DNA from: a virus
Taxonomy: Duplodnaviria > Heunggongvirae > Uroviricota > Caudoviricetes
DNA: 8,542 bases
IMG/VR virus record: IMGVR_UViG_2541047699_000003
Direction: 5' to 3' (one strand)
In this document: one piece after another, positions 1 to 8,106 of the stretch
Layout of the letters: every line of letters begins with the position of its first letter
How positions within the stretch are numbered: the stretch's first letter is position 1
Program-made: the position numbers and the translations under genes
Notes under the pieces: generated by a model
Database searches by the model: none
Seen by the model: the letters and a program-made list of their open reading frames with translations, nothing else
What the model was told of the DNA's origin: nothing

Positions 1-1458
1 GCGTATGACCTTGCTAACGGGAAATACACTGCACAGGATGCCACCACAGCGCGAAAAGGTCTTGTCCAGCTCAGTAGCGCCACCAACAGTGATTCTGAAA
101 CGCTGGCCGCAACACCAAAAGCGGTGAAGTCTGCCTATGACAATGCTGAAAAACGTCTTCAGAAAGATCAGAACGGTGCGGATATTCCGGGAAAGGATAC
201 CTTCACGAAAAATATCGGTGCCTGTCGTGCTTATAGCGGCGCTTTGAGCACTGAAGCCGGAAACTGGACAACCGCTCAGTTTATTGAATGGCTGGATTCC
301 CGTGGTGCATTTAATCATCCGTACTGGATGTGCAAAGGCTCCTGGTCATATGCAAATAACAAAATCATTACGGATACCGGATGTGGTGATATCAACCTGG
401 CTGGTTGTGTCGTCGAGGTCATGGGAACTAAATCTGCAATCACTATTCGAGTGACCACGCCGACAACATCAAGTGGTGGCGGTACAACCAGCGCGCAATT
501 CACTTACATTAATCATGGGGACGGCTACTCCCCCGGCTGGCGTCGTGACTGGAATCGTCAGGGCGACGCAATGACCGGAACGATTAATCAGGATGGCGGA
601 AGCCAGAATGCCTATATGTCTACGGCCTTATGTTCAGGCACCAGAGGCGGCAAAAAATATCTCAGAAAGTTTCGTGGTGGAGAAGGAGACATTATCTGGC
701 ATGAAACAGTACAGGGCGGGGTAATTCGCTGGGCGACAGGAAACTATGACGCTAAGGAAGAATTATCCCTCAGCTCCGCTTATGGTCTCCGTTCAAGAGG
801 TGAGATTACATCACTCAGTGCTAATGGTCTGCGCATTGCTTATGGCAATTATGGATTCTTTATCAGGAATGATGGCGGCAGAACATATTTAATGCTGACG
901 GCCTCTGGCGATAAATTTGGGACATGGAACGGTTTAAGGCCGCTGACTATCAATAACGCTAATGGCGGAGTGTCAATGGGGCATGGCCTGAGTGTTACTG
1001 GTGATATTGCCTCAAGTACCAAAGTACGTGCCGGTAGCGGGAAAAAATTCACGGTCAGCAGCAGCAATACATCCACGAAGGAAGCCGCATTCAATTTGTG
1101 GGGAAACTCAAGTCGTCCGGTGGTGGCTGAATTAGGTGATGATGCAGGCTGGCATTTTTACAGTCAGAGAAATACAGATAACAGCATCACTTTTGCTGTT
1201 AACGGGCAGGTATCACCATCTAACTATAGTAATTTTGATTCACGCTATGTCCGGGATATCCGGCTTGGTGGTGCTGCCACATACAAACCTGCGAACAATG
1301 GCATGACATGGACACATCAGGCACCGTCCGGGTGTGTATATTCCGGCATTATTGTTCAGGATACCAGCTCAAACTCTGCCGATAACATTGGTGGCGTATA
1401 TTACAGACCGGTGCAGAAATACATTAACGGGACTTGGTATAACGTGGCGCAGGTATAA
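1..1458 (+). CDS. H: Tail fibre protein, C-terminal ~485 codons (5' end lies upstream of the window)
   Basis: Frame 1 is open from base 1 (AYDLANGKYTAQDATTARKGLVQLSSATNSDSETLAATPKAVKSAYDNAEKR...), a motif I recognise from P2-type tail fibre proteins; the ATG at 124 in the ORF track is internal. TAA stop at 1456-1458 is followed 3 nt later by the chaperone start. Gly/Ser/Thr-rich repetitive composition typical of fibre shafts. Confidence 0.88.
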   Translation, partial: AYDLANGKYTAQDATTARKGLVQLSSATNSDSETLAATPKAVKSAYDNAEKRLQKDQNGADIPGKDTFTKNIGACRAYSGALSTEAGNWTTAQFIEWLDSRGAFNHPYWMCKGSWSYANNKIITDTGCGDINLAGCVVEVMGTKSAITIRVTTPTTSSGGGTTSAQFTYINHGDGYSPGWRRDWNRQGDAMTGTINQDGGSQNAYMSTALCSGTRGGKKYLRKFRGGEGDIIWHETVQGGVIRWATGNYDAKEELSLSSAYGLRSRGEITSLSANGLRIAYGNYGFFIRNDGGRTYLMLTASGDKFGTWNGLRPLTINNANGGVSMGHGLSVTGDIASSTKVRAGSGKKFTVSSSNTSTKEAAFNLWGNSSRPVVAELGDDAGWHFYSQRNTDNSITFAVNGQVSPSNYSNFDSRYVRDIRLGGAATYKPANNGMTWTHQAPSGCVYSGIIVQDTSSNSADNIGGVYYRPVQKYINGTWYNVAQV

Positions 1459-1461
1459 TTT

Positions 1462-1989
1462 ATGCAGCATTTGATAAATATAACGGCAGGTAATCCAAAA
1501 ACGGTTGAACAATATCAATTGACAAAGGACTTTGATGTTGTCTGGTTTTTTTCAGAAGATGGTAAGAACTGGTACGAAGAACAAAAGTATTTTGCTGATG
1601 ACACGATAAAAATAGCGTACGACAAAGATAATATTATCCGCTATGTGGAAAAGGATGTGACAGCTATCAGACCGGATGGATTAAGTGTGGTTGAAGTGGC
1701 GGATATTACTGCTAATCGGCGGGCGGACATTTCAGGGGGCTGGATGTTTAAGGACGGCAAAGTGATTAAACGCATTTATACGGCAGAGGAATTGCAGCAG
1801 CAGGCAGAAAATCGGAAAGCCAGACTTCTTGCAGATGCTGAATCCGTGATTTTGCCGCTGGAGCGCGCGGTCAGACTGAACATGGCAACAGATGAGGAGC
1901 GTAGCCGACTGGATGCATGGGAGCGTTACAGCGTTCTGGTCAGTCGTGTGGATCCTGCAAATCCTGAATGGCCGGAAATGCCGCAATAA
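1462..1989 (+). CDS. G: Tail fibre assembly chaperone (Tfa, P2 gpG-like)
   Basis: 175 aa, same length as P2 gpG as I recall it. N-terminus [22 protein letters not shown] and C-terminus ...[14 protein letters not shown] are characteristic of enterobacterial Tfa proteins. Start sits 3 nt after the fibre stop, consistent with translational coupling. Confidence 0.88.
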
Positions 1990-2023: not shown

Positions 2024-2065
2024 TGGCACAGAGTAAAGACTAATCTGACAGTCCGCTCTGTGCCA
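2024..2065. repeat. Perfect 10-bp inverted repeat (TGGCACAGAG / CTCTGTGCCA) with a 22-nt spacer, 35 nt downstream of the G stop
   Basis: Read directly: 2024-2033 tggcacagag and 2056-2065 ctctgtgcca are exact reverse complements. Followed by AAAAAC on the + strand, so not a canonical intrinsic terminator in either direction. Confidence 0.6.
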
Positions 2066-2131
2066 AAAACGGACATGTCAAAGCGCAGAGTGAATGGCTA
2101 AGTCTAGCTCATTAGAAATGTTCGCTTCATG

Positions 2132-2173
2132 AAAATGGCTGCAGCAAGGATCTATCTCACTGCGGCCTCTTTA
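2132..2173 (-). terminator. Putative intrinsic terminator for the minus-strand cargo gene, possibly weakly bidirectional
   Basis: Stem 2137-2144 (ggctgcag) pairs with 2160-2167 (ctgcggcc): 8 bp with one G-U, 15-nt loop. On the minus-strand transcript the stem is followed by AUUUUC (complement of 2131-2136), about 27 nt downstream of the cargo stop at 2194. On the + strand it is followed by a weaker UCUUU. Confidence 0.45.
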
Positions 2174-2193
2174 CAATAACGAAATTTTGCGAG

Positions 2194-2949
2194 CTATTCC
2201 TTGGCCTCTTTATTTTTCTCGCCATCGCCAATGTAAAGAAGATAATCGTTTAAGGATATCCTTCCGGAGGGGCCGGTCCATGTTATCCATCCGTTCTCAC
2301 GAAGATTAAATAATGCTTCCATGAACTCATTATCGTTAAAAGAATGATCCTCTGAGAACAGAATGTTCATTTTTCTCAATAGTTCTTCCACTTTAATCTT
2401 TTCATATCGCCTTATCAGACTTAGTGCTTTACGACGCATTAAGATTGTAGGTACTGCTTGTGAACGAATGGTTTTTTGTATTCCACTATCAAGAACTTTC
2501 TTGATCTTACTCTCTAACTCTTTGATTTTAGTTTCATTATCTCCATTGGACTTAAGCTTTTCATCAACGATGCAAATAATTTCCTGACTAATGCTGTTCT
2601 TGAGGTTGTTTATTTTTTCTTCATTGTTGAGAATCTCATCAGAGCTTCCTGCATGGGGTTTTTTCCATATGTGCTGACGCATATCCGTTACCGTATCTCT
2701 CATCATAGAGAATGTATCTGAATATAACTTGTCAAATATTTTTTCCAGTCGTTCGACACTTGCCTGGATGTCTTTTGCTGCTTTAGTTGTCTCTTTAGAA
2801 GCCTCATTCGACATTTTATAAAAAACAAAAGAAAGCCAAATAGCCCCAATGGCGAGTACTAATGAGGCTATTGTGGCAATAAAACCTATTATTGTTATTG
2901 CTGTATCTAATGTACCTGCTGCATCTGTGACTACTGTTTCTGCTGCCAT
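2194..2949 (-). CDS. Hypothetical membrane-anchored protein, 251 aa; cargo gene at the P2 Z/fun-equivalent locus, candidate anti-phage / abortive-infection or lysogenic-conversion protein
   Basis: Intact 251-codon ORF opposite to all flanking tail genes. ATG at 2949 is preceded by GAGGA (2957-2953) with a 3-nt spacer. Residues ~17-44 (AITIIGFIATIASLVLAIGAIWLSFVFY, nt ~2818-2901) form a 28-residue hydrophobic segment; the rest is K/E-rich, helical-looking and soluble. AT-rich relative to neighbours: my counts on 60-nt samples give 24/60 and 20/60 G+C inside the gene versus 38/60 in the sheath gene. Function is inference from genomic context only. Confidence 0.75.
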   Translation of the reverse strand: MAAETVVTDAAGTLDTAITIIGFIATIASLVLAIGAIWLSFVFYKMSNEASKETTKAAKDIQASVERLEKIFDKLYSDTFSMMRDTVTDMRQHIWKKPHAGSSDEILNNEEKINNLKNSISQEIICIVDEKLKSNGDNETKIKELESKIKKVLDSGIQKTIRSQAVPTILMRRKALSLIRRYEKIKVEELLRKMNILFSEDHSFNDNEFMEALFNLRENGWITWTGPSGRISLNDYLLYIGDGEKNKEAKE

Positions 2950-3110
2950 ATATCCTCAATATTTAACCATACAGGGTAGCGTGTTTTAACCGCGGGGAAG
3001 TCGGGGTGGTGACACCCTAGCCTTACCCCGATTCCAGAGTATTTATTTATCATACCATTGAAACTATTTAATTTTATCGAAAATTTTGTCAGAGCGTGAC
3101 TGAAAAGTCT
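2950..3110 (-). promoter_or_regulatory. Probable promoter / 5' leader region for the cargo gene
   Basis: Non-coding, very AT-rich block (3040-3100) directly upstream of the minus-strand start. -35/-10 elements could not be placed confidently by eye (a CTGACA-like hexamer in the reverse complement of ~3086-3091 is one possibility). Confidence 0.3.
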
Positions 3111-3336
3111 TCAGCACGTCAAGCATATCGTCGCCGTTCAATTAACACTGAGCCTTTTCTTAGAGGGGTGGGCTGCGCAGTTGCGAGGTTATGCCCCAGT
3201 TCCTGGTTCCTCACTACATTCTAATTAAGCCGGCCAACTAAATGTCCGCTTTTCGCTCAAAGCAGACTGTCAGATTTGATAGCGTTTGGGCTAGGTAAAT
3301 TGTCAGTTGAAAAATGAGTGAGTACAAATCAGGACG

Positions 3337-3363
3337 GGCGGGCGAGTTGCCCGCCTTTTCTTT
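3337..3363 (+). terminator. Rho-independent terminator (+ strand) immediately upstream of the FI promoter
   Basis: GGCGGGC (3337-3343), loop GAGTT (3344-3348), GCCCGCC (3349-3355): 7-bp GC-only stem followed by TTTTCTTT (3356-3363). The minus-strand version lacks a U-tract, so it is oriented for + strand transcripts. Confidence 0.7.
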
Positions 3364-3364
3364 A

Positions 3365-3445
3365 ATCTGTTGTTTCATCCACTGACCAGTCAGGTCAAAT
3401 AGCGTCTTATGCACTGCCCAACAGAAAATAGTTGCACCCATTAAC
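3365..3445 (+). promoter_or_regulatory. Putative Ogr-dependent late promoter (PF-equivalent) for the FI-FII-E-T-U operon
   Basis: Positionally equivalent to the P2 PF late promoter. Contains the dyad CTGAC-CA-GTCAG (3382-3393) roughly 70-80 nt upstream of the FI ATG. No exact TGT-N12-ACA match was found, hence low confidence. Confidence 0.35.
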
Positions 3446-3460
3446 CACGGAGTTAAACGG

Positions 3461-4651
3461 ATGAGTGACTATCATCACGGCGTGCAGGTGCTGGAGATTA
3501 ACGACGGCACCCGCGTCATTTCCACCGTATCCACTGCCATTGTCGGCATGGTCTGCACGGCCAGCGATGCGGATGCGGAAACCTTTCCTCTCAATAAACC
3601 TGTACTGATTACCAATGTGCAGAGCGCAATTGCAAAGGCCGGTAAAAAAGGCACGCTGGCGGCGTCGTTGCAGGCCATCGCTGACCAGTCAAAACCGGTC
3701 ACCGTTGTCGTGCGCGTGGAAGACGGCACCGGTGATGACGAGGAAACGAAACTCGCGCAGACTGTTTCCAATATCATCGGCACCACCGACGAAAACGGTC
3801 AGTACACCGGACTGAAAGCCCTGATGGGGGCTGAGTCGGTTACCGGCGTTAAACCGCGCATTCTCGGCGTACCGGGACTGGACACCAAAGAGGTCGCCGT
3901 CGCACTGGCATCGGTATGCCAGGAACTGAATGCCTTCGGGTATATCAGCGCATGGGGTTGTAAAACCATTTCCGAGGTGAAAGCCTACCGCCAGAATTTC
4001 AGCCAGCGTGAGCTGATGGTTATCTGGCCGGATTTCCTCGCATGGGATACGGTTACCAGTACCACCGCCACCGCGTATGCCACCGCTCGTGCGCTGGGTC
4101 TGCGCGCTAAAATCGACCAGGAGCAGGGCTGGCATAAAACGCTGTCCAACGTCGGGGTGAACGGTGTTACCGGCATCAGTGCATCCGTCTTCTGGGATTT
4201 GCAGAAGCCAGGCACTGATGCTGACCTGCTGAACGAGGCAGGCGTCACAACGCTGGTTCGCCGCGACGGTTTTCGTTTCTGGGGTAACCGTACCTGCTCT
4301 GATGACCCGCTGTTCCTCTTTGAAAGCTACACACGCACCGCGCAGGTACTGGCCGACACGATGGCTGAGGCGCACATGTGGGCTATTGATAAGCCCATCA
4401 CCGCAACGCTGATTCGCGACATCGTTGACGGCATCAATGCCAAATTCCGTGAACTGAAAAACAACGGTTATATCGTGGATGGCACATGCTGGTTCAGCGA
4501 AGAATCCAACGATGCGGAAACCCTCAAGGCCGGAAAACTGTATATCGACTACGACTATACCCCGGTGCCTCCTCTCGAAAACCTGACCCTGCGCCAGCGT
4601 ATTACTTCCAGATACCTGGCAAGTCTGGTCACTTCGGTTAACAGCAATTAA
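3461..4651 (+). CDS. FI: Contractile tail sheath protein (P2 gpFI-like)
   Basis: 396 aa, the length I recall for P2 gpFI. N-terminus MSDYHHGVQVLEINDGTRVISTVSTAIVGMVCTASDADAETFPLNKPVLITNVQ matches my memory of the P2 sheath protein. GGAG RBS at 3448-3451. Confidence 0.95.
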   Translation: MSDYHHGVQVLEINDGTRVISTVSTAIVGMVCTASDADAETFPLNKPVLITNVQSAIAKAGKKGTLAASLQAIADQSKPVTVVVRVEDGTGDDEETKLAQTVSNIIGTTDENGQYTGLKALMGAESVTGVKPRILGVPGLDTKEVAVALASVCQELNAFGYISAWGCKTISEVKAYRQNFSQRELMVIWPDFLAWDTVTSTTATAYATARALGLRAKIDQEQGWHKTLSNVGVNGVTGISASVFWDLQKPGTDADLLNEAGVTTLVRRDGFRFWGNRTCSDDPLFLFESYTRTAQVLADTMAEAHMWAIDKPITATLIRDIVDGINAKFRELKNNGYIVDGTCWFSEESNDAETLKAGKLYIDYDYTPVPPLENLTLRQRITSRYLASLVTSVNSN

Positions 4652-5238: not shown

Positions 5239-5514
5239 ATGAACAAAGAAAATGTGATTACCCTGGACAATCCGGTCAAGCGTGGTGAGCAGGTTATCGA
5301 ACAGGTCACGCTGATGAAACCTAATGCCGGGACGCTGCGCGGTGTCAGTCTGGCTGCGGTCGCAAACTCCGAAGTCGATGCACTGATTAAGGTGCTGCCG
5401 CGCATGACGGCACCGATGCTGACCGAGCAGGAGGTCGCCGCGCTGGAACTGCCTGACCTTGTGGCGCTGGCCGGTAAGGTGGTCGGTTTTTTGTCTCCGA
5501 ACTCGGTGCAGTGA
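5239..5514 (+). CDS. E: Tail assembly chaperone gpE (zero-frame product)
   Basis: 91 aa ORF between the tube and tape measure genes, the conserved position of the tape-measure chaperone. Ends just after a T6G slippery run. Confidence 0.88.
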   Translation: MNKENVITLDNPVKRGEQVIEQVTLMKPNAGTLRGVSLAAVANSEVDALIKVLPRMTAPMLTEQEVAALELPDLVALAGKVVGFLSPNSVQ

Positions 5515-5666
5515 CGTTTCCGAAAAATCTGTCGGTCGATGACCTGATGGCAGATGTGGCAGTGATATTTCACTGGCCGCCATCAGAACTGTATCCCATG
5601 AGCCTGACCGAACTCATCACATGGCGCGAAAAGGCGCTCCGGCGAAGCGGAAGCACGAATGAGTAA
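5239..5666 (+). CDS. E+E': gpE+E' fusion chaperone made by -1 programmed ribosomal frameshift (join 5239..5490, 5490..5666)
   Basis: Slippery run GGTTTTTTG at 5485-5493. Slipping back 1 nt after the TTT codon at 5488-5490 opens a frame that runs 58 codons to TAA at 5664-5666. 84 + 58 = 142 aa, the size I recall for P2 gpE+E'. The E' stop overlaps the T start (ATGAGTAA, 5659-5666). Confidence 0.8.
5485..5493 (+). other. -1 programmed ribosomal frameshift slippery site (G GTT TTT TG)
   Basis: T6 run followed by G in the last codons of E; the -1 frame is open from here to 5666. Analogous to the P2 E/E' and lambda G/GT frameshifts. Confidence 0.75.
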
Positions 5667-8106
5667 CAATGTAAAATTACAGGTATTGCTCAGGGCTGTT
5701 GACCAGGCATCCCGCCCGTTTAAATCCATCCGCACAGCGAGTAAGTCGCTGTCGGGGGATATCCGGGAAACACAAAAATCACTGCGCGAGCTGAACGGTC
5801 ACGCATCCCGTATTGAGGGATTCCGCAAGACCAGTGCACAGCTCGCCGTGACTGGTCATGCACTTGAAAAGGCACGGCAGGAGGCCGAAGCCCTTGCCAC
5901 ACAGTTTAAAAACACCGAACGTCCGACCCGTGCTCAGGCGAAAGTGCTGGAATCCGCAAAGCGTGCGGCGGAGGACTTACAGGCGAAATATAACCGCCTG
6001 ACGGATTCCGTTAAGCGCCAGCAGCGGGAACTGGCCGCTGTGGGAATTAATACCCGCAATCTTGCACATGATGAGCAGGGACTGAAAAACCGTATCAGTG
6101 AAACCACCGCACAGCTTAACCGGCAGCGTGACGCGCTGGCGCGTGTCAGTGCGCAACAGGCAAAACTTAATGCAGTAAAACAGCGTTATCAGGCCGGAAA
6201 GGAACTGGCCGGAAATATGGCCTCAGTGGGCGCTGCCGGTGTGGGGATTGCGGCGGCGGGAACGATGGCCGGAGTTAAGTTGCTGATGCCCGGTTATGAG
6301 TTTGCGCAGAAAAACTCAGAATTGCAGGCCGTGCTGGGTGTGGCAAAAGACTCCGCCGAAATGACCGCACTACGCAAACAGGCGCGCCAGCTCGGCGACA
6401 ATACCGCCGCCTCGGCGGATGATGCGGCCGGTGCACAGATAATCATCGCGAAAGCGGGTGGGGATGTTGATGCCATTCAGGCGGCAACGCCGGTCACGCT
6501 GAATATGGCGCTGGCGAACCGCCGCACGATGGAAGAAAACGCCGCCCTGCTGATGGGGATGAAATCCGCCTTTCAGCTTTCAAACGATAAGGTCGCTCAT
6601 ATCGGGGATGTTCTCTCCATGACGATGAACAAAACCGCCGCCGATTTTGACGGCATGAGCGATGCGCTGACCTATGCCGCACCTGTGGCAAAAAATGCCG
6701 GTGTCAGCATTGAAGAAACCGCCGCAATGGTCGGGGCGCTGCATGATGCAAAAATCACAGGCTCAATGGCGGGGACGGGAAGCCGTGCCGTGTTAAGCCG
6801 CCTGCAGGCACCGACGGGAAAAGCATGGGATGCACTCAAAGAGCTTGGAGTGAAAACCTCAGACAGCAAGGGAAACACCCGGCCAATATTTACCATTCTG
6901 AAAGAAATGCAGGCCAGTTTTGAGAAAAACCGGCTCGGTACTGCCCAGCAGGCTGAATACATGAAAACCATTTTCGGGGAGGAGGCCAGCTCAGCCGCCG
7001 CCGTGCTGATGACTGCCGCCTCAACCGGAAAGCTGGACAAACTGACCGCTGCGTTTAAAGCCTCGGACGGGAAGACCTCAGAGCTGGTAAATATTATGCA
7101 GGACAATCTCGGCGGTGACTTTAAGGAGTTTCAGTCCGCTTATGAGGCGGTGGGGACTGACCTGTTTGACCAGCAGGAAGGCGCACTGCGTAAGCTCACG
7201 CAGACGGCCACAAAGTATGTGTTAAAACTCGACGGCTGGATACAGAAAAACAAATCACTGGCGTCAACCATCGGCATCATTGCCGGCGGTGCACTGGTGC
7301 TGACTGGCATCATCGGTGCCATTGGCCTTGTAGCTTGGCCGGTTATCACCGGCATCAATGCCATTATCGCGGCAGCAGGCGCAATGGGGGCAATCTTCAC
7401 GACGGTTGGTAGTGCCGTTATGACGGCCATCGGTGCGATTAGCTGGCCGGTTGTGGCCGTGGTGGCCGCTATTGTCGCCGGGGCGTTACTTATCCGTAAA
7501 TACTGGGAGCCTGTCAGCGCATTCTTTGGCGGTGTGGTGGAAGGGCTGAAAGCGGCATTTGCGCCGGTGGGGGAACTGTTCACGCCACTTAAGCCGCTGT
7601 TTGACTGGCTGGGTGAAAAGTTACAGGCCGCGTGGCAGTGGTTTAAAAACCTGATTGCCCCGGTTAAAGCCACCCAGGACACACTGAACCGTTGCCGTGA
7701 CACGGGCGTCATGTTCGGGCAGGCACTGGCTGACGCGCTGATGCTGCCGCTTAATGCGTTCAAAAAACTGCGCAGTGGTATTGACTGGGTACTGGAAAAA
7801 CTCGGTGTTATCAACAAAGAGTCAGACACACTTGACCAGACCGCCGCCAGAACTCAAGCTGCCACGTATGGCAGCGGTGGTTATATTCCGGCGACCAGCT
7901 CTTATGCAGGTTATCAGGCTTATCAGCCGGTCACGGCACCGGCTGGCCGCTCTTATGTGGACCAGAGTAAAAACGAATATCACATCAGCCTGACGGGTGG
8001 TACTGCGCCGGGGACACAGCTCGACCGCCAGTTACAGGATGCGCTCGAAAAATACGAGCGGGATAAACGTGCGCGCGCCCGTGCCAGCATGATGCATGAC
8101 GGTTAA
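5659..8106 (+). CDS. T: Tail tape measure protein (P2 gpT-like)
   Basis: 815 aa. N-terminal half is helical and rich in Q/R/A/K/E; then a long Gly/Ala/Ile-rich hydrophobic block (IGIIAGGALVLTGIIGAIGLVAWPVITGINAIIAAAGAMGAIFTTVGSAVMTAIGAISWPVVAVVAAIVAGALLI, ~nt 7260-7500). Located after E/E'. Start overlaps the E' stop. Confidence 0.93.
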   Translation: MSNNVKLQVLLRAVDQASRPFKSIRTASKSLSGDIRETQKSLRELNGHASRIEGFRKTSAQLAVTGHALEKARQEAEALATQFKNTERPTRAQAKVLESAKRAAEDLQAKYNRLTDSVKRQQRELAAVGINTRNLAHDEQGLKNRISETTAQLNRQRDALARVSAQQAKLNAVKQRYQAGKELAGNMASVGAAGVGIAAAGTMAGVKLLMPGYEFAQKNSELQAVLGVAKDSAEMTALRKQARQLGDNTAASADDAAGAQIIIAKAGGDVDAIQAATPVTLNMALANRRTMEENAALLMGMKSAFQLSNDKVAHIGDVLSMTMNKTAADFDGMSDALTYAAPVAKNAGVSIEETAAMVGALHDAKITGSMAGTGSRAVLSRLQAPTGKAWDALKELGVKTSDSKGNTRPIFTILKEMQASFEKNRLGTAQQAEYMKTIFGEEASSAAAVLMTAASTGKLDKLTAAFKASDGKTSELVNIMQDNLGGDFKEFQSAYEAVGTDLFDQQEGALRKLTQTATKYVLKLDGWIQKNKSLASTIGIIAGGALVLTGIIGAIGLVAWPVITGINAIIAAAGAMGAIFTTVGSAVMTAIGAISWPVVAVVAAIVAGALLIRKYWEPVSAFFGGVVEGLKAAFAPVGELFTPLKPLFDWLGEKLQAAWQWFKNLIAPVKATQDTLNRCRDTGVMFGQALADALMLPLNAFKKLRSGIDWVLEKLGVINKESDTLDQTAARTQAATYGSGGYIPATSSYAGYQAYQPVTAPAGRSYVDQSKNEYHISLTGGTAPGTQLDRQLQDALEKYERDKRARARASMMHDG

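Follow-up and report, generated by a model that had tools for sequence, protein, structure and literature searches.

Phages and prophages carry small inner-membrane exclusion proteins such as lambda RexB, T4 Imm, P22 SieA and HK97 gp15. RexB, which depends on RexA, has several transmembrane (TM) helices; the injection blockers work at the membrane or from its periplasmic side, many of them with greater periplasmic exposure than the 251-aa protein described here. Another arrangement is found in the CARF-TM protein Cam1 of type III CRISPR and in the TM effectors of CBASS and Pycsar, which join a TM segment to a cytoplasmic sensor and depolarise the membrane by oligomerising. They answer a nucleotide signal made by partner genes. 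In phage P2, Fun(Z) is the product of a lysogenic-conversion gene, a cloned copy of which blocks T5.

The slot occupied by fun, between the tail genes G and FI, is regarded as a defence/accessory hotspot (PMC9519451, PMC13586616, bioRxiv 10.1101/2024.10.15.618418). Vassallo et al. mapped three validated systems, together with fun, to this slot (PMC9519451), and a tail-gene hotspot was reported by Moura de Sousa et al. to hold 16% of P2 defence systems (PMC13586616). iLund4u recovers the Z/fun hotspot again, and the tests of Rousset et al. were confined to the A-Q hotspot. Both the G-FI slot and its inverted repeats have been described before, as has the notion that defence cargo resides there. 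P2 hotspots also carry non-defence cargo, including toxins, partition systems and tail-fibre swaps. Among described single-gene systems, the DUF4041-type membrane-anchored nuclease proteins consist of an N-terminal membrane anchor, a central coiled coil and a C-terminal nucleic-acid-type domain (PMC9519451).

Here we describe a gene in the G-FI slot of a P2-like prophage. The window, that is, the whole stretch of DNA that was analysed, comprises 8,542 nucleotides of a Caudoviricetes record (IMGVR_UViG_2541047699_000003).

Results

A minus-strand gene within the tail-gene block

Across the window runs a plus-strand block of P2-type tail genes: the 3' part of H followed by G, FI, FII, E and T. 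Phages P2_2H4 and 9W are ~97% identical to it. A preliminary description, made from the nucleotide sequence alone, had pointed to an AT-rich ORF of 251 aa on the minus strand, surrounded by plus-strand P2 tail genes. The ORF is present as described, starts with ATG and is the only minus-strand exception in the block; every other long ORF with a family match is a plus-strand P2 tail gene.

1-1458, plus strand: H, with a Gp34_trimer match
1462-1989, plus strand: G, with a Caudo_TAP match
FI, FII, E and T, plus strand: sheath, tube, TAC_7 and PhageMin_Tail (tape measure) matches, respectively
2194..2949 including the stop codon, minus strand: 251-aa ORF with ATG start, member of PHROG 36054, predicted bitopic inner-membrane protein

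The G+C content is 37.0% in the ORF and 39.4% in the cassette that contains it, against 55.8, 57.2 and 56.2% in FI, FII and T. The contrast in base composition is therefore real, but smaller than the preliminary figure of ~63% for FI had implied. H and G (45-48%) also lie below FI-T (56%). Many related phages align to the window only from ~1229 onward, and an identical cargo allele adjoins H genes of 728, 748 and 772 aa. Swapping of the receptor-binding tail-fibre end appears to have been independent of the adjoining cargo.

The gene occupies a variable cargo slot bounded by hairpins

The gene lies between G and FI, in the Z/fun cargo slot, and is flanked by an inverted repeat of 35 nt (2042-2076 and 3242-3276, 86%). 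Hairpin elements were found at both boundaries.

2024..2074, no strand assigned: left boundary hairpin element (fold z = -4.29); P2 backbones agree up to here and the cargo differs beyond
3244..3276, no strand assigned: right boundary hairpin element, an inverted copy of the left (fold z = -3.43)

Both elements are annotated in AJ512677 as the left and right inverted repeats of the P2 'Z region', which bears out the earlier placement of the gene at the P2 Z/fun locus. When five P2-like loci were aligned (the window, P2, P2-EC31 and two E. coli prophages), the sequences diverged exactly at the hairpins (2024-2074 and 3244-3267) and were wholly different between them. The slot holds Fun(Z) in P2 and a Shedu SduA_C protein in P2-EC31. 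In other E. coli P2-like prophages, annotations place a Shedu nuclease, a Lit-family exclusion protein, SMEK, DUF5677, DUF4145 and DUF6615 in the same slot.

This particular cargo is rare. In its P2 context it was found in 7 of the 1,713 E. coli complete genomes that matched the region, and P2_2H4 and 9W, two distinct sequenced phages, were the only carriers among 50,697 phage records. Invariance between G and FI across P2-like phages, which the preliminary description had named as grounds for seeing a conserved phage function here, is contradicted by the absence of the gene from >99% of those with the same flanking genes. The claim that it is variable cargo was thus borne out.

Expression signals of the cassette

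The following elements were recognized upstream and downstream of the gene.

2953..2957, minus strand: Shine-Dalgarno-like GAGGA, 3 nt before the ATG, read from the sequence
2950..3243, minus strand: 5' leader and promoter region of ~290 nt, near-identical in the P2, lambdoid and Citrobacter koseri copies
3092-3063, minus strand: promoter candidate CTGACA-18-AATAGT, a consensus match only
3057-3049, minus strand: promoter candidate with extended -10 TGGTATGAT, a consensus match only
2137-2167, minus strand: terminator-like hairpin with an 11-bp stem and a 7-nt loop followed by AUUUUCAU, 27 nt past the stop codon

The ribosome-binding site, upstream leader and downstream terminator hairpin that had been proposed for the gene were all found, the leader being conserved even in the Citrobacter copies. 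The terminator hairpin has a fold z of -2.15 on the minus strand and -2.34 on the plus strand, where it can also form, after gene G. In a promoter scan of the leader, the candidates did not rise above shuffle expectation. An Rfam search of the leader gave no match and no fold signal was present (z = 0.07), so a structured RNA in the leader was dropped from consideration. A mini-hairpin at 2990-3025 (minus strand) reads GGGTG..CACCC in E. coli and GGCTG..CAGCC in C. koseri, with the 5-bp stem kept (alignment A2, columns ~375-400).

The cassette is self-contained, a 'moron' made up of a promoter leader (with promoter candidates recognized by consensus only), a ribosome-binding site, a single gene and a terminator. 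It lies between G and FI within a pair of inverted repeats, the content of the slot differs among otherwise alike phages, and the gene has its own transcription and translation signals, the promoter hexamers among these being consensus matches only, together with a deviating G+C content (37% versus 56%).

A further, strong terminator-like hairpin on the plus strand at 3336-3356 (GGGCGGGCGAGTTGCCCGCC, then TTTTCTTT) lies just upstream of the activator-binding and start sites of the late F-operon promoter (~3364-3437), which were transferred from the P2 annotation with the FI start as reference point. The region belongs to the backbone, not to the cargo, and is conserved in all of the aligned P2-like loci.

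Transfer of the cassette between P2-like and lambdoid prophages

Three pig E. coli genomes harbour the cassette in a lambdoid prophage. Positions 2024-3268 of the window are present there at 98.5% identity (99.2% over 2051-3268), and the left hairpin core (2051-2074) is retained. The site lies between a DUF977 replication-region gene and hokD.

Concerning this site, the DUF977-hokD interval (locus L003, 5300-7900; hits H217-H256) is itself a highly variable cargo slot in lambdoid prophages. A query with the interval matched 4,839 of 5,426 E. coli genomes, and the cargo found there includes QueH, an acetyltransferase, methyltransferases, DUF7167, and an ATP-binding protein with an alpha/beta hydrolase and DUF1627. 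Boundary element sites were located at 2024-2074 and 3244-3276 of the window, at 5975-6024 and 7193-7216 of L003, at ~3675-3725 of locus L084 and at ~975-1025 of locus L082. Irrespective of the cargo they carry, lambdoid prophages have a homologue of the left hairpin 3' of DUF977; in the two lambdoid loci that were checked, the right border is not shared. The cassette segment common to the window and the lambdoid prophage begins within the left hairpin and extends to where the core of the right hairpin stops. These results suggest that the boundary hairpins are exchange points between unrelated phage backbones.

Distribution and genomic neighbours of the family

Homologues were found in several other kinds of element. 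In a Serratia marcescens prophage the gene lies between the small and large terminase genes in opposite orientation, and in C. koseri homologues lie at prophage edges, adjoining dinI. An Alcaligenes homologue adjoins inovirus genes (Zot, secretin), and a second inovirus association was found on an enterobacterial contig, where the homologue adjoins a gpII-type replication gene. Three Klebsiella IncF conjugative plasmids carry a homologue beside an ISNCY transposase, with a SMEK gene ~5 kb away. Small chromosomal islets contain it in Limnohabitans, Methanoregula, Contendobacter and others, and some copies sit between core genes with no marks of a mobile element.

A 480-aa ISNCY-type transposase ORF is present in the flanking 6 kb of both the Klebsiella plasmid copy, where it lies directly upstream of the homologue (L017, transposase at 5433-6875), and the Buttiauxella chromosomal copy (L037). 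The Klebsiella plasmid allele is 58% identical. Within this branch, an insertion sequence may carry the gene along. In Candidatus Contendobacter (L015/L038, 7373-9461), a run of unannotated genes follows the homologue. One encodes a 346-aa protein with a faint precomputed match to Peptidase_U49 (Lit-like), not reproduced by a fresh Pfam scan, and another a protein with a sub-threshold DUF6377 match; together these genes may form a small conflict islet.

When one genome for each of ~185,000 species was scanned with a sequence pattern, 44 loci were detected in as many species of bacteria and archaea, distributed over Proteobacteria, Bacteroidota, Actinomycetota, Chloroflexota, Planctomycetota, Acidobacteriota, Bacillota, Campylobacterota and Archaea. 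We clustered all ORFs of 53 homologue loci and found no recurrent neighbour family, which argues that the gene works alone. A conserved partner gene was dropped from consideration, the sole recurrent 'neighbour' being an antisense ORF of ~100 aa opposite the conserved 5' part of the gene (13 of the 53 loci, for example L016 6979-7281, minus strand). The simplest reading is that this ORF shadows the strongly conserved coding sequence and is no second gene.

At the 38 cross-phylum loci, which lie outside enterobacteria, the four closest genes were mostly housekeeping genes. A known defence gene was present at about 3-4 of these loci and an integrase or transposase at about 5, numbers not clearly above background. 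The genes in question were Old, a true PD-T4-6 kinase and PDC-S26, in addition to three integrases, two transposases and two DUF5677 genes. Association with defence genes outside enterobacteria is weak.

A conserved membrane module and a fast-evolving cytoplasmic body

The protein matches PHROG 36054 over its full length (positions 1-251 of 251, E = 2.8e-176), a family without annotated function, so that membership says nothing on function. The 90% clusters contain 351 homologues, and at 50% identity there are 480 representatives; almost all are 200-260 aa long and unnamed. In the enterobacterial copies dN/dS over the whole gene is 0.17-0.20. Taken with the number of homologues, this indicates a real gene and not a chance ORF. 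No significant model for the 251-aa protein was found in Pfam, NCBIfam or PADLOC. Its regions are as follows.

2818..2901, minus strand, codons 17-44: single TM helix (Kyte-Doolittle peak 2.41; AF2 pLDDT 85-97)
2665..2817, minus strand, codons 45-95: amphipathic juxtamembrane helix (conservation 0.75 in 262 sequences; hydrophobic moment 0.43-0.53)
2440..2664, minus strand, codons 96-170: helical (coiled-coil-like) linker, variable in length and sequence (conservation 0.32)
2230..2439, minus strand, codons 171-240: basic helix (+6) followed by an acidic (-5) winged-helix domain

The hydrophobic segment at residues 17-44 that had been noted earlier is the only one in the protein. In 262 relatives, Lys and Arg residues average 0.12 ahead of the TM helix and 2.97 over the 15 positions that follow, and the N-terminal tail has a median length of 6 aa. 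The topology is therefore N-out/C-in, with nearly the whole protein in the cytoplasm.

Structures were predicted in two AF2 runs with 57 and 150 sequences. The models are all-helical up to the winged helix. The TM segment and the proximal helix are predicted confidently (pLDDT 85-97). Residues 71-170 have pLDDT values of 43-70, with the linker helices (103-133 and 139-182) at low pLDDT, and the C-terminal alpha/beta domain is at 78-87. This domain was the only part with the features of a winged helix, consisting of a three-helix bundle and a beta-hairpin wing and being superposable on solved winged helices. The membrane-anchored, helical cytoplasmic body without an enzymatic domain that had been described from the sequence is supported, but the C-terminal winged helix had been missed. 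In the fold search it was this winged helix that found matches; the helical body, modelled at low pLDDT, found none. With its acidic character (-5) and its resemblance to winged helices that bind proteins (cullin WHB, RPA32C), the domain is a doubtful sensor of DNA. A few relatives (P0084 and P0088; L016 7001-8008) possess an extra C-terminal OST-HTH/LOTUS domain (Pfam E = 8e-11), which hints at a nucleic-acid (RNA) association in that branch.

Conservation is distributed unevenly. Mean column conservation is 0.65 in the TM helix, 0.75 in the juxtamembrane helix and 0.31 in the winged helix. Residues 27-95 contain 26 columns that are invariant in 57 diverse sequences (…AIWLS…RLE..FDKLYSDTFSMM.DTV.DMR.HIW); the invariant positions include R67, E69, D73, D78, D89, R91, H93 and W95. 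The juxtamembrane helix has a broad hydrophobic/aromatic face, and invariant charged residues lie on the opposite face. By region, dN/dS is 0.02-0.04 in the TM and juxtamembrane segments, 0.09-0.28 in the linker and 0.18-0.40 in the C-terminal domain. In this last domain dN exceeds that of the membrane module by a factor of 7-29.

Comparison with known systems

The comparison with P2 Fun/Z and with catalogued defence systems that the preliminary description had suggested brought out no relationship. BLASTP against P2 Fun(Z) (NP_046777.1) gave no similarity (best E = 8.7), and membership of the Fun(Z) family was rejected. The two genes share the G-FI slot, the minus strand, the character of a single non-essential gene with its own expression signals, and the same bounding hairpins. 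They differ in the size of their products (251 aa against 528 aa for Fun(Z), which itself has no Pfam match).

In the PADLOC defence models there was no genuine match. PD-T4-6 is a 436-aa S/T kinase that constitutes a single-gene defence system. The 251-aa protein does not match the PADLOC PD-T4-6 models, and 46 of 57 relatives match a PD-T4-6 model with 13-21 bits, only over the non-kinase helical part (profile positions 235-390). As a control, reversed sequences scored 19-23 bits against LeoBC, another helical model, and shuffled sequences gave no match. The PD-T4-6 link was rejected as a coiled-coil artefact, because it covers the helical part only and reversed sequences match another helical model equally strongly. 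Weak PADLOC matches to CARF, Csa3, CasR, ZorA and LeoA, and Pfam matches to apolipoprotein, phasin, DHC_N1 and FUT8, were likewise set aside as sub-threshold helical or winged-helix look-alikes.

The overall layout, the single gene and the occurrence in mobile elements are shared with the DUF4041-type system (PMC9519451). The C-terminus here is, in contrast, a small acidic winged helix without a catalytic motif, and the conserved part is the membrane-proximal helix. No DUF4041 or nuclease domain was found in the protein (Pfam E <= 0.1) or among the 25 most frequent Pfam families of the 57 relatives (E <= 0.01), and a DUF4041-type nuclease identity was discarded.

As a working analogy, the protein may resemble the TM effectors of the Cam1, CBASS and Pycsar kind in combining an N-terminal TM segment with a cytoplasmic binding domain. 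Unlike Cam1-type effectors, it has neither a partner gene nor a CARF fold. The PADLOC CARF/Csa3 matches are either confined to the winged-helix region or score just 18 bits along the helical body, and with an all-helical model up to the winged helix and no CRISPR neighbours, identity as a CARF-TM protein was rejected. RexB, Imm, SieA and gp15 are likewise small, phage-carried inner-membrane proteins, with which a common role in exclusion is proposed here by analogy. The present protein differs from these in having one TM helix, virtually no periplasmic part and a large cytoplasmic body, and PADLOC and PHROG searches detected no sequence relationship to them.

Similarity to any validated defence protein was found neither by sequence nor by profile. 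The accessible literature, searched by accession, phage name and peptide motif and including DefensePredictor supplements, yielded no mention of the protein.

Discussion

Location and architecture raise the possibility that the gene encodes a single-gene phage-exclusion factor of the abortive kind, in which cytoplasmic recognition triggers a membrane-compromising TM/juxtamembrane effector. We tentatively favour this function and regard it as quite possible. The gene would be expressed from the prophage in a lysogen, giving a stand-alone inner-membrane protein whose body faces the cytoplasm. The fast-evolving coiled coil and winged helix may recognize a cue of an infecting phage or another mobile element, probably a protein and possibly nucleic acid. 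The TM helix and amphipathic juxtamembrane module would be the effector, oligomerising to compromise the inner membrane or a membrane-bound step, and the damage would abort the infection.

Several observations lead to this proposal. The location among defence genes, the occurrence in at least five kinds of element, the patchy cross-phylum spread and the low G+C content argue for a conflict (defence) gene; a distribution that is patchy and yet crosses phyla (44 species) is typical of such genes when they spread horizontally. An invariant membrane module, set against a cytoplasmic coiled coil and winged helix that evolve fast, is consistent with a sensor and an effector in one protein, and as almost no part is periplasmic, recognition would take place in the cytoplasm. 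Abortive exclusion is further favoured because the G-FI slot is a recognized cargo/defence hotspot and because the gene is variable, mobile and stand-alone with its own expression signals. On the other hand, it is disfavoured by the mostly housekeeping neighbours and few defence genes at the cross-phylum loci, by the lack of similarity to validated defence proteins, and by the copies between core genes that bear no marks of a mobile element. P2 hotspots hold non-defence cargo too, and a near-invariant membrane module would suit contact with a conserved cellular machine equally well. As to the pore-forming step in particular, a single TM helix can make a pore only as an oligomer.

Exclusion need not involve killing. 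The winged helix might bind a phage protein and so block a membrane-associated step of the incoming phage, for instance the translocation of its genome or the docking of a complex for replication or assembly. The evidence from genomic context serves this mechanism just as well, carrier phages would gain from keeping competitors out, the winged helix is of the acidic, protein-binding kind, and two associations are with genes of filamentous phages, whose replication and assembly are membrane-bound. Periplasmic exposure is however almost nil (median 6 residues), and such a mechanism leaves unexplained why the TM and juxtamembrane segments, and not the binding domain, are the most conserved. We consider non-lethal exclusion quite unlikely, and rank abortive exclusion above it because recognition must be cytoplasmic. 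A more serious competitor, although still rather unlikely in our estimation, is a membrane-tethered regulator or adaptor with no part in defence, which alters host physiology or aids persistence of the element; it might, for instance, sequester at the membrane a protein of the host or the element, or modulate envelope stress. Toxins, partition systems and tail-fibre swaps are precedents for such cargo in P2 hotspots. The membrane module is near-invariant across phyla and archaea, as if touching a universally conserved component, several chromosomal copies are found among housekeeping genes, and defence or mobile neighbours at the 38 loci are not clearly above background. A general physiological role is difficult to reconcile with the very sparse, patchy spread (44 of ~185,000 species in the pattern scan) and with carriage by at least five kinds of mobile element, and the slot-mates in P2 are predominantly defence-type genes.

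We also took into account that the gene lies among tail genes and could be a lysis or morphogenesis component of a P2 variant, whether spanin-like, holin/antiholin-like or a tail-assembly factor. An N-terminal TM helix followed by a coiled coil is superficially like an i-spanin, and there is a weak PHROG match to an Rz-like spanin (E = 1.1). By the positive-inside rule, though, the C-terminus is cytoplasmic, the reverse of an i-spanin, no partner gene is adjacent, and the gene lies on the opposite strand, outside the late operons; identity as an inner-membrane (Rz-like) spanin was rejected on the cytoplasmic C-terminus, the missing partner gene and the position among tail genes on the opposite strand. 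Absence from >99% of the P2-like prophages with the same flanking genes, and presence on plasmids and at non-phage chromosomal sites, already contradict a lysis or morphogenesis function, which we find hardly credible.

Returning to defence, a broader proposal is that the family as a whole is an unrecognised minimal one-protein immune module, ranging from enterobacteria to methanogenic archaea, in which a cytoplasmic winged-helix sensor would be coupled via the coiled coil to the near-invariant single-TM/amphipathic effector. It would be shuttled as a hairpin-bounded cassette among mobile elements, namely P2-like and lambdoid phages, siphophages, inoviruses and conjugative plasmids. We put this forward as speculation and judge it unlikely in this full form.

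The protein family is uncharacterised, and among the many passengers of the hotspot this one is a well-defined and easily testable candidate, with a membrane module that is unusually conserved. If the gene does not act in defence, it would be one more unexplained hotspot passenger. If it does, it would be a new architecture of a familiar kind, the single-gene, membrane-anchored exclusion protein. Phage exclusion, if true, would define a new and very small single-gene defence family, with an effector module conserved across bacterial phyla and archaea and matching no known defence domain, and would offer a simple system in which to study how a membrane effector of one helix is activated by a recognition domain in the cytoplasm. 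Whatever its function, the gene provides a clean example of a hairpin-bounded cassette that has been transferred with hardly any change between a P2-like and a lambdoid prophage, an event which bears on how prophage hotspots exchange their contents.
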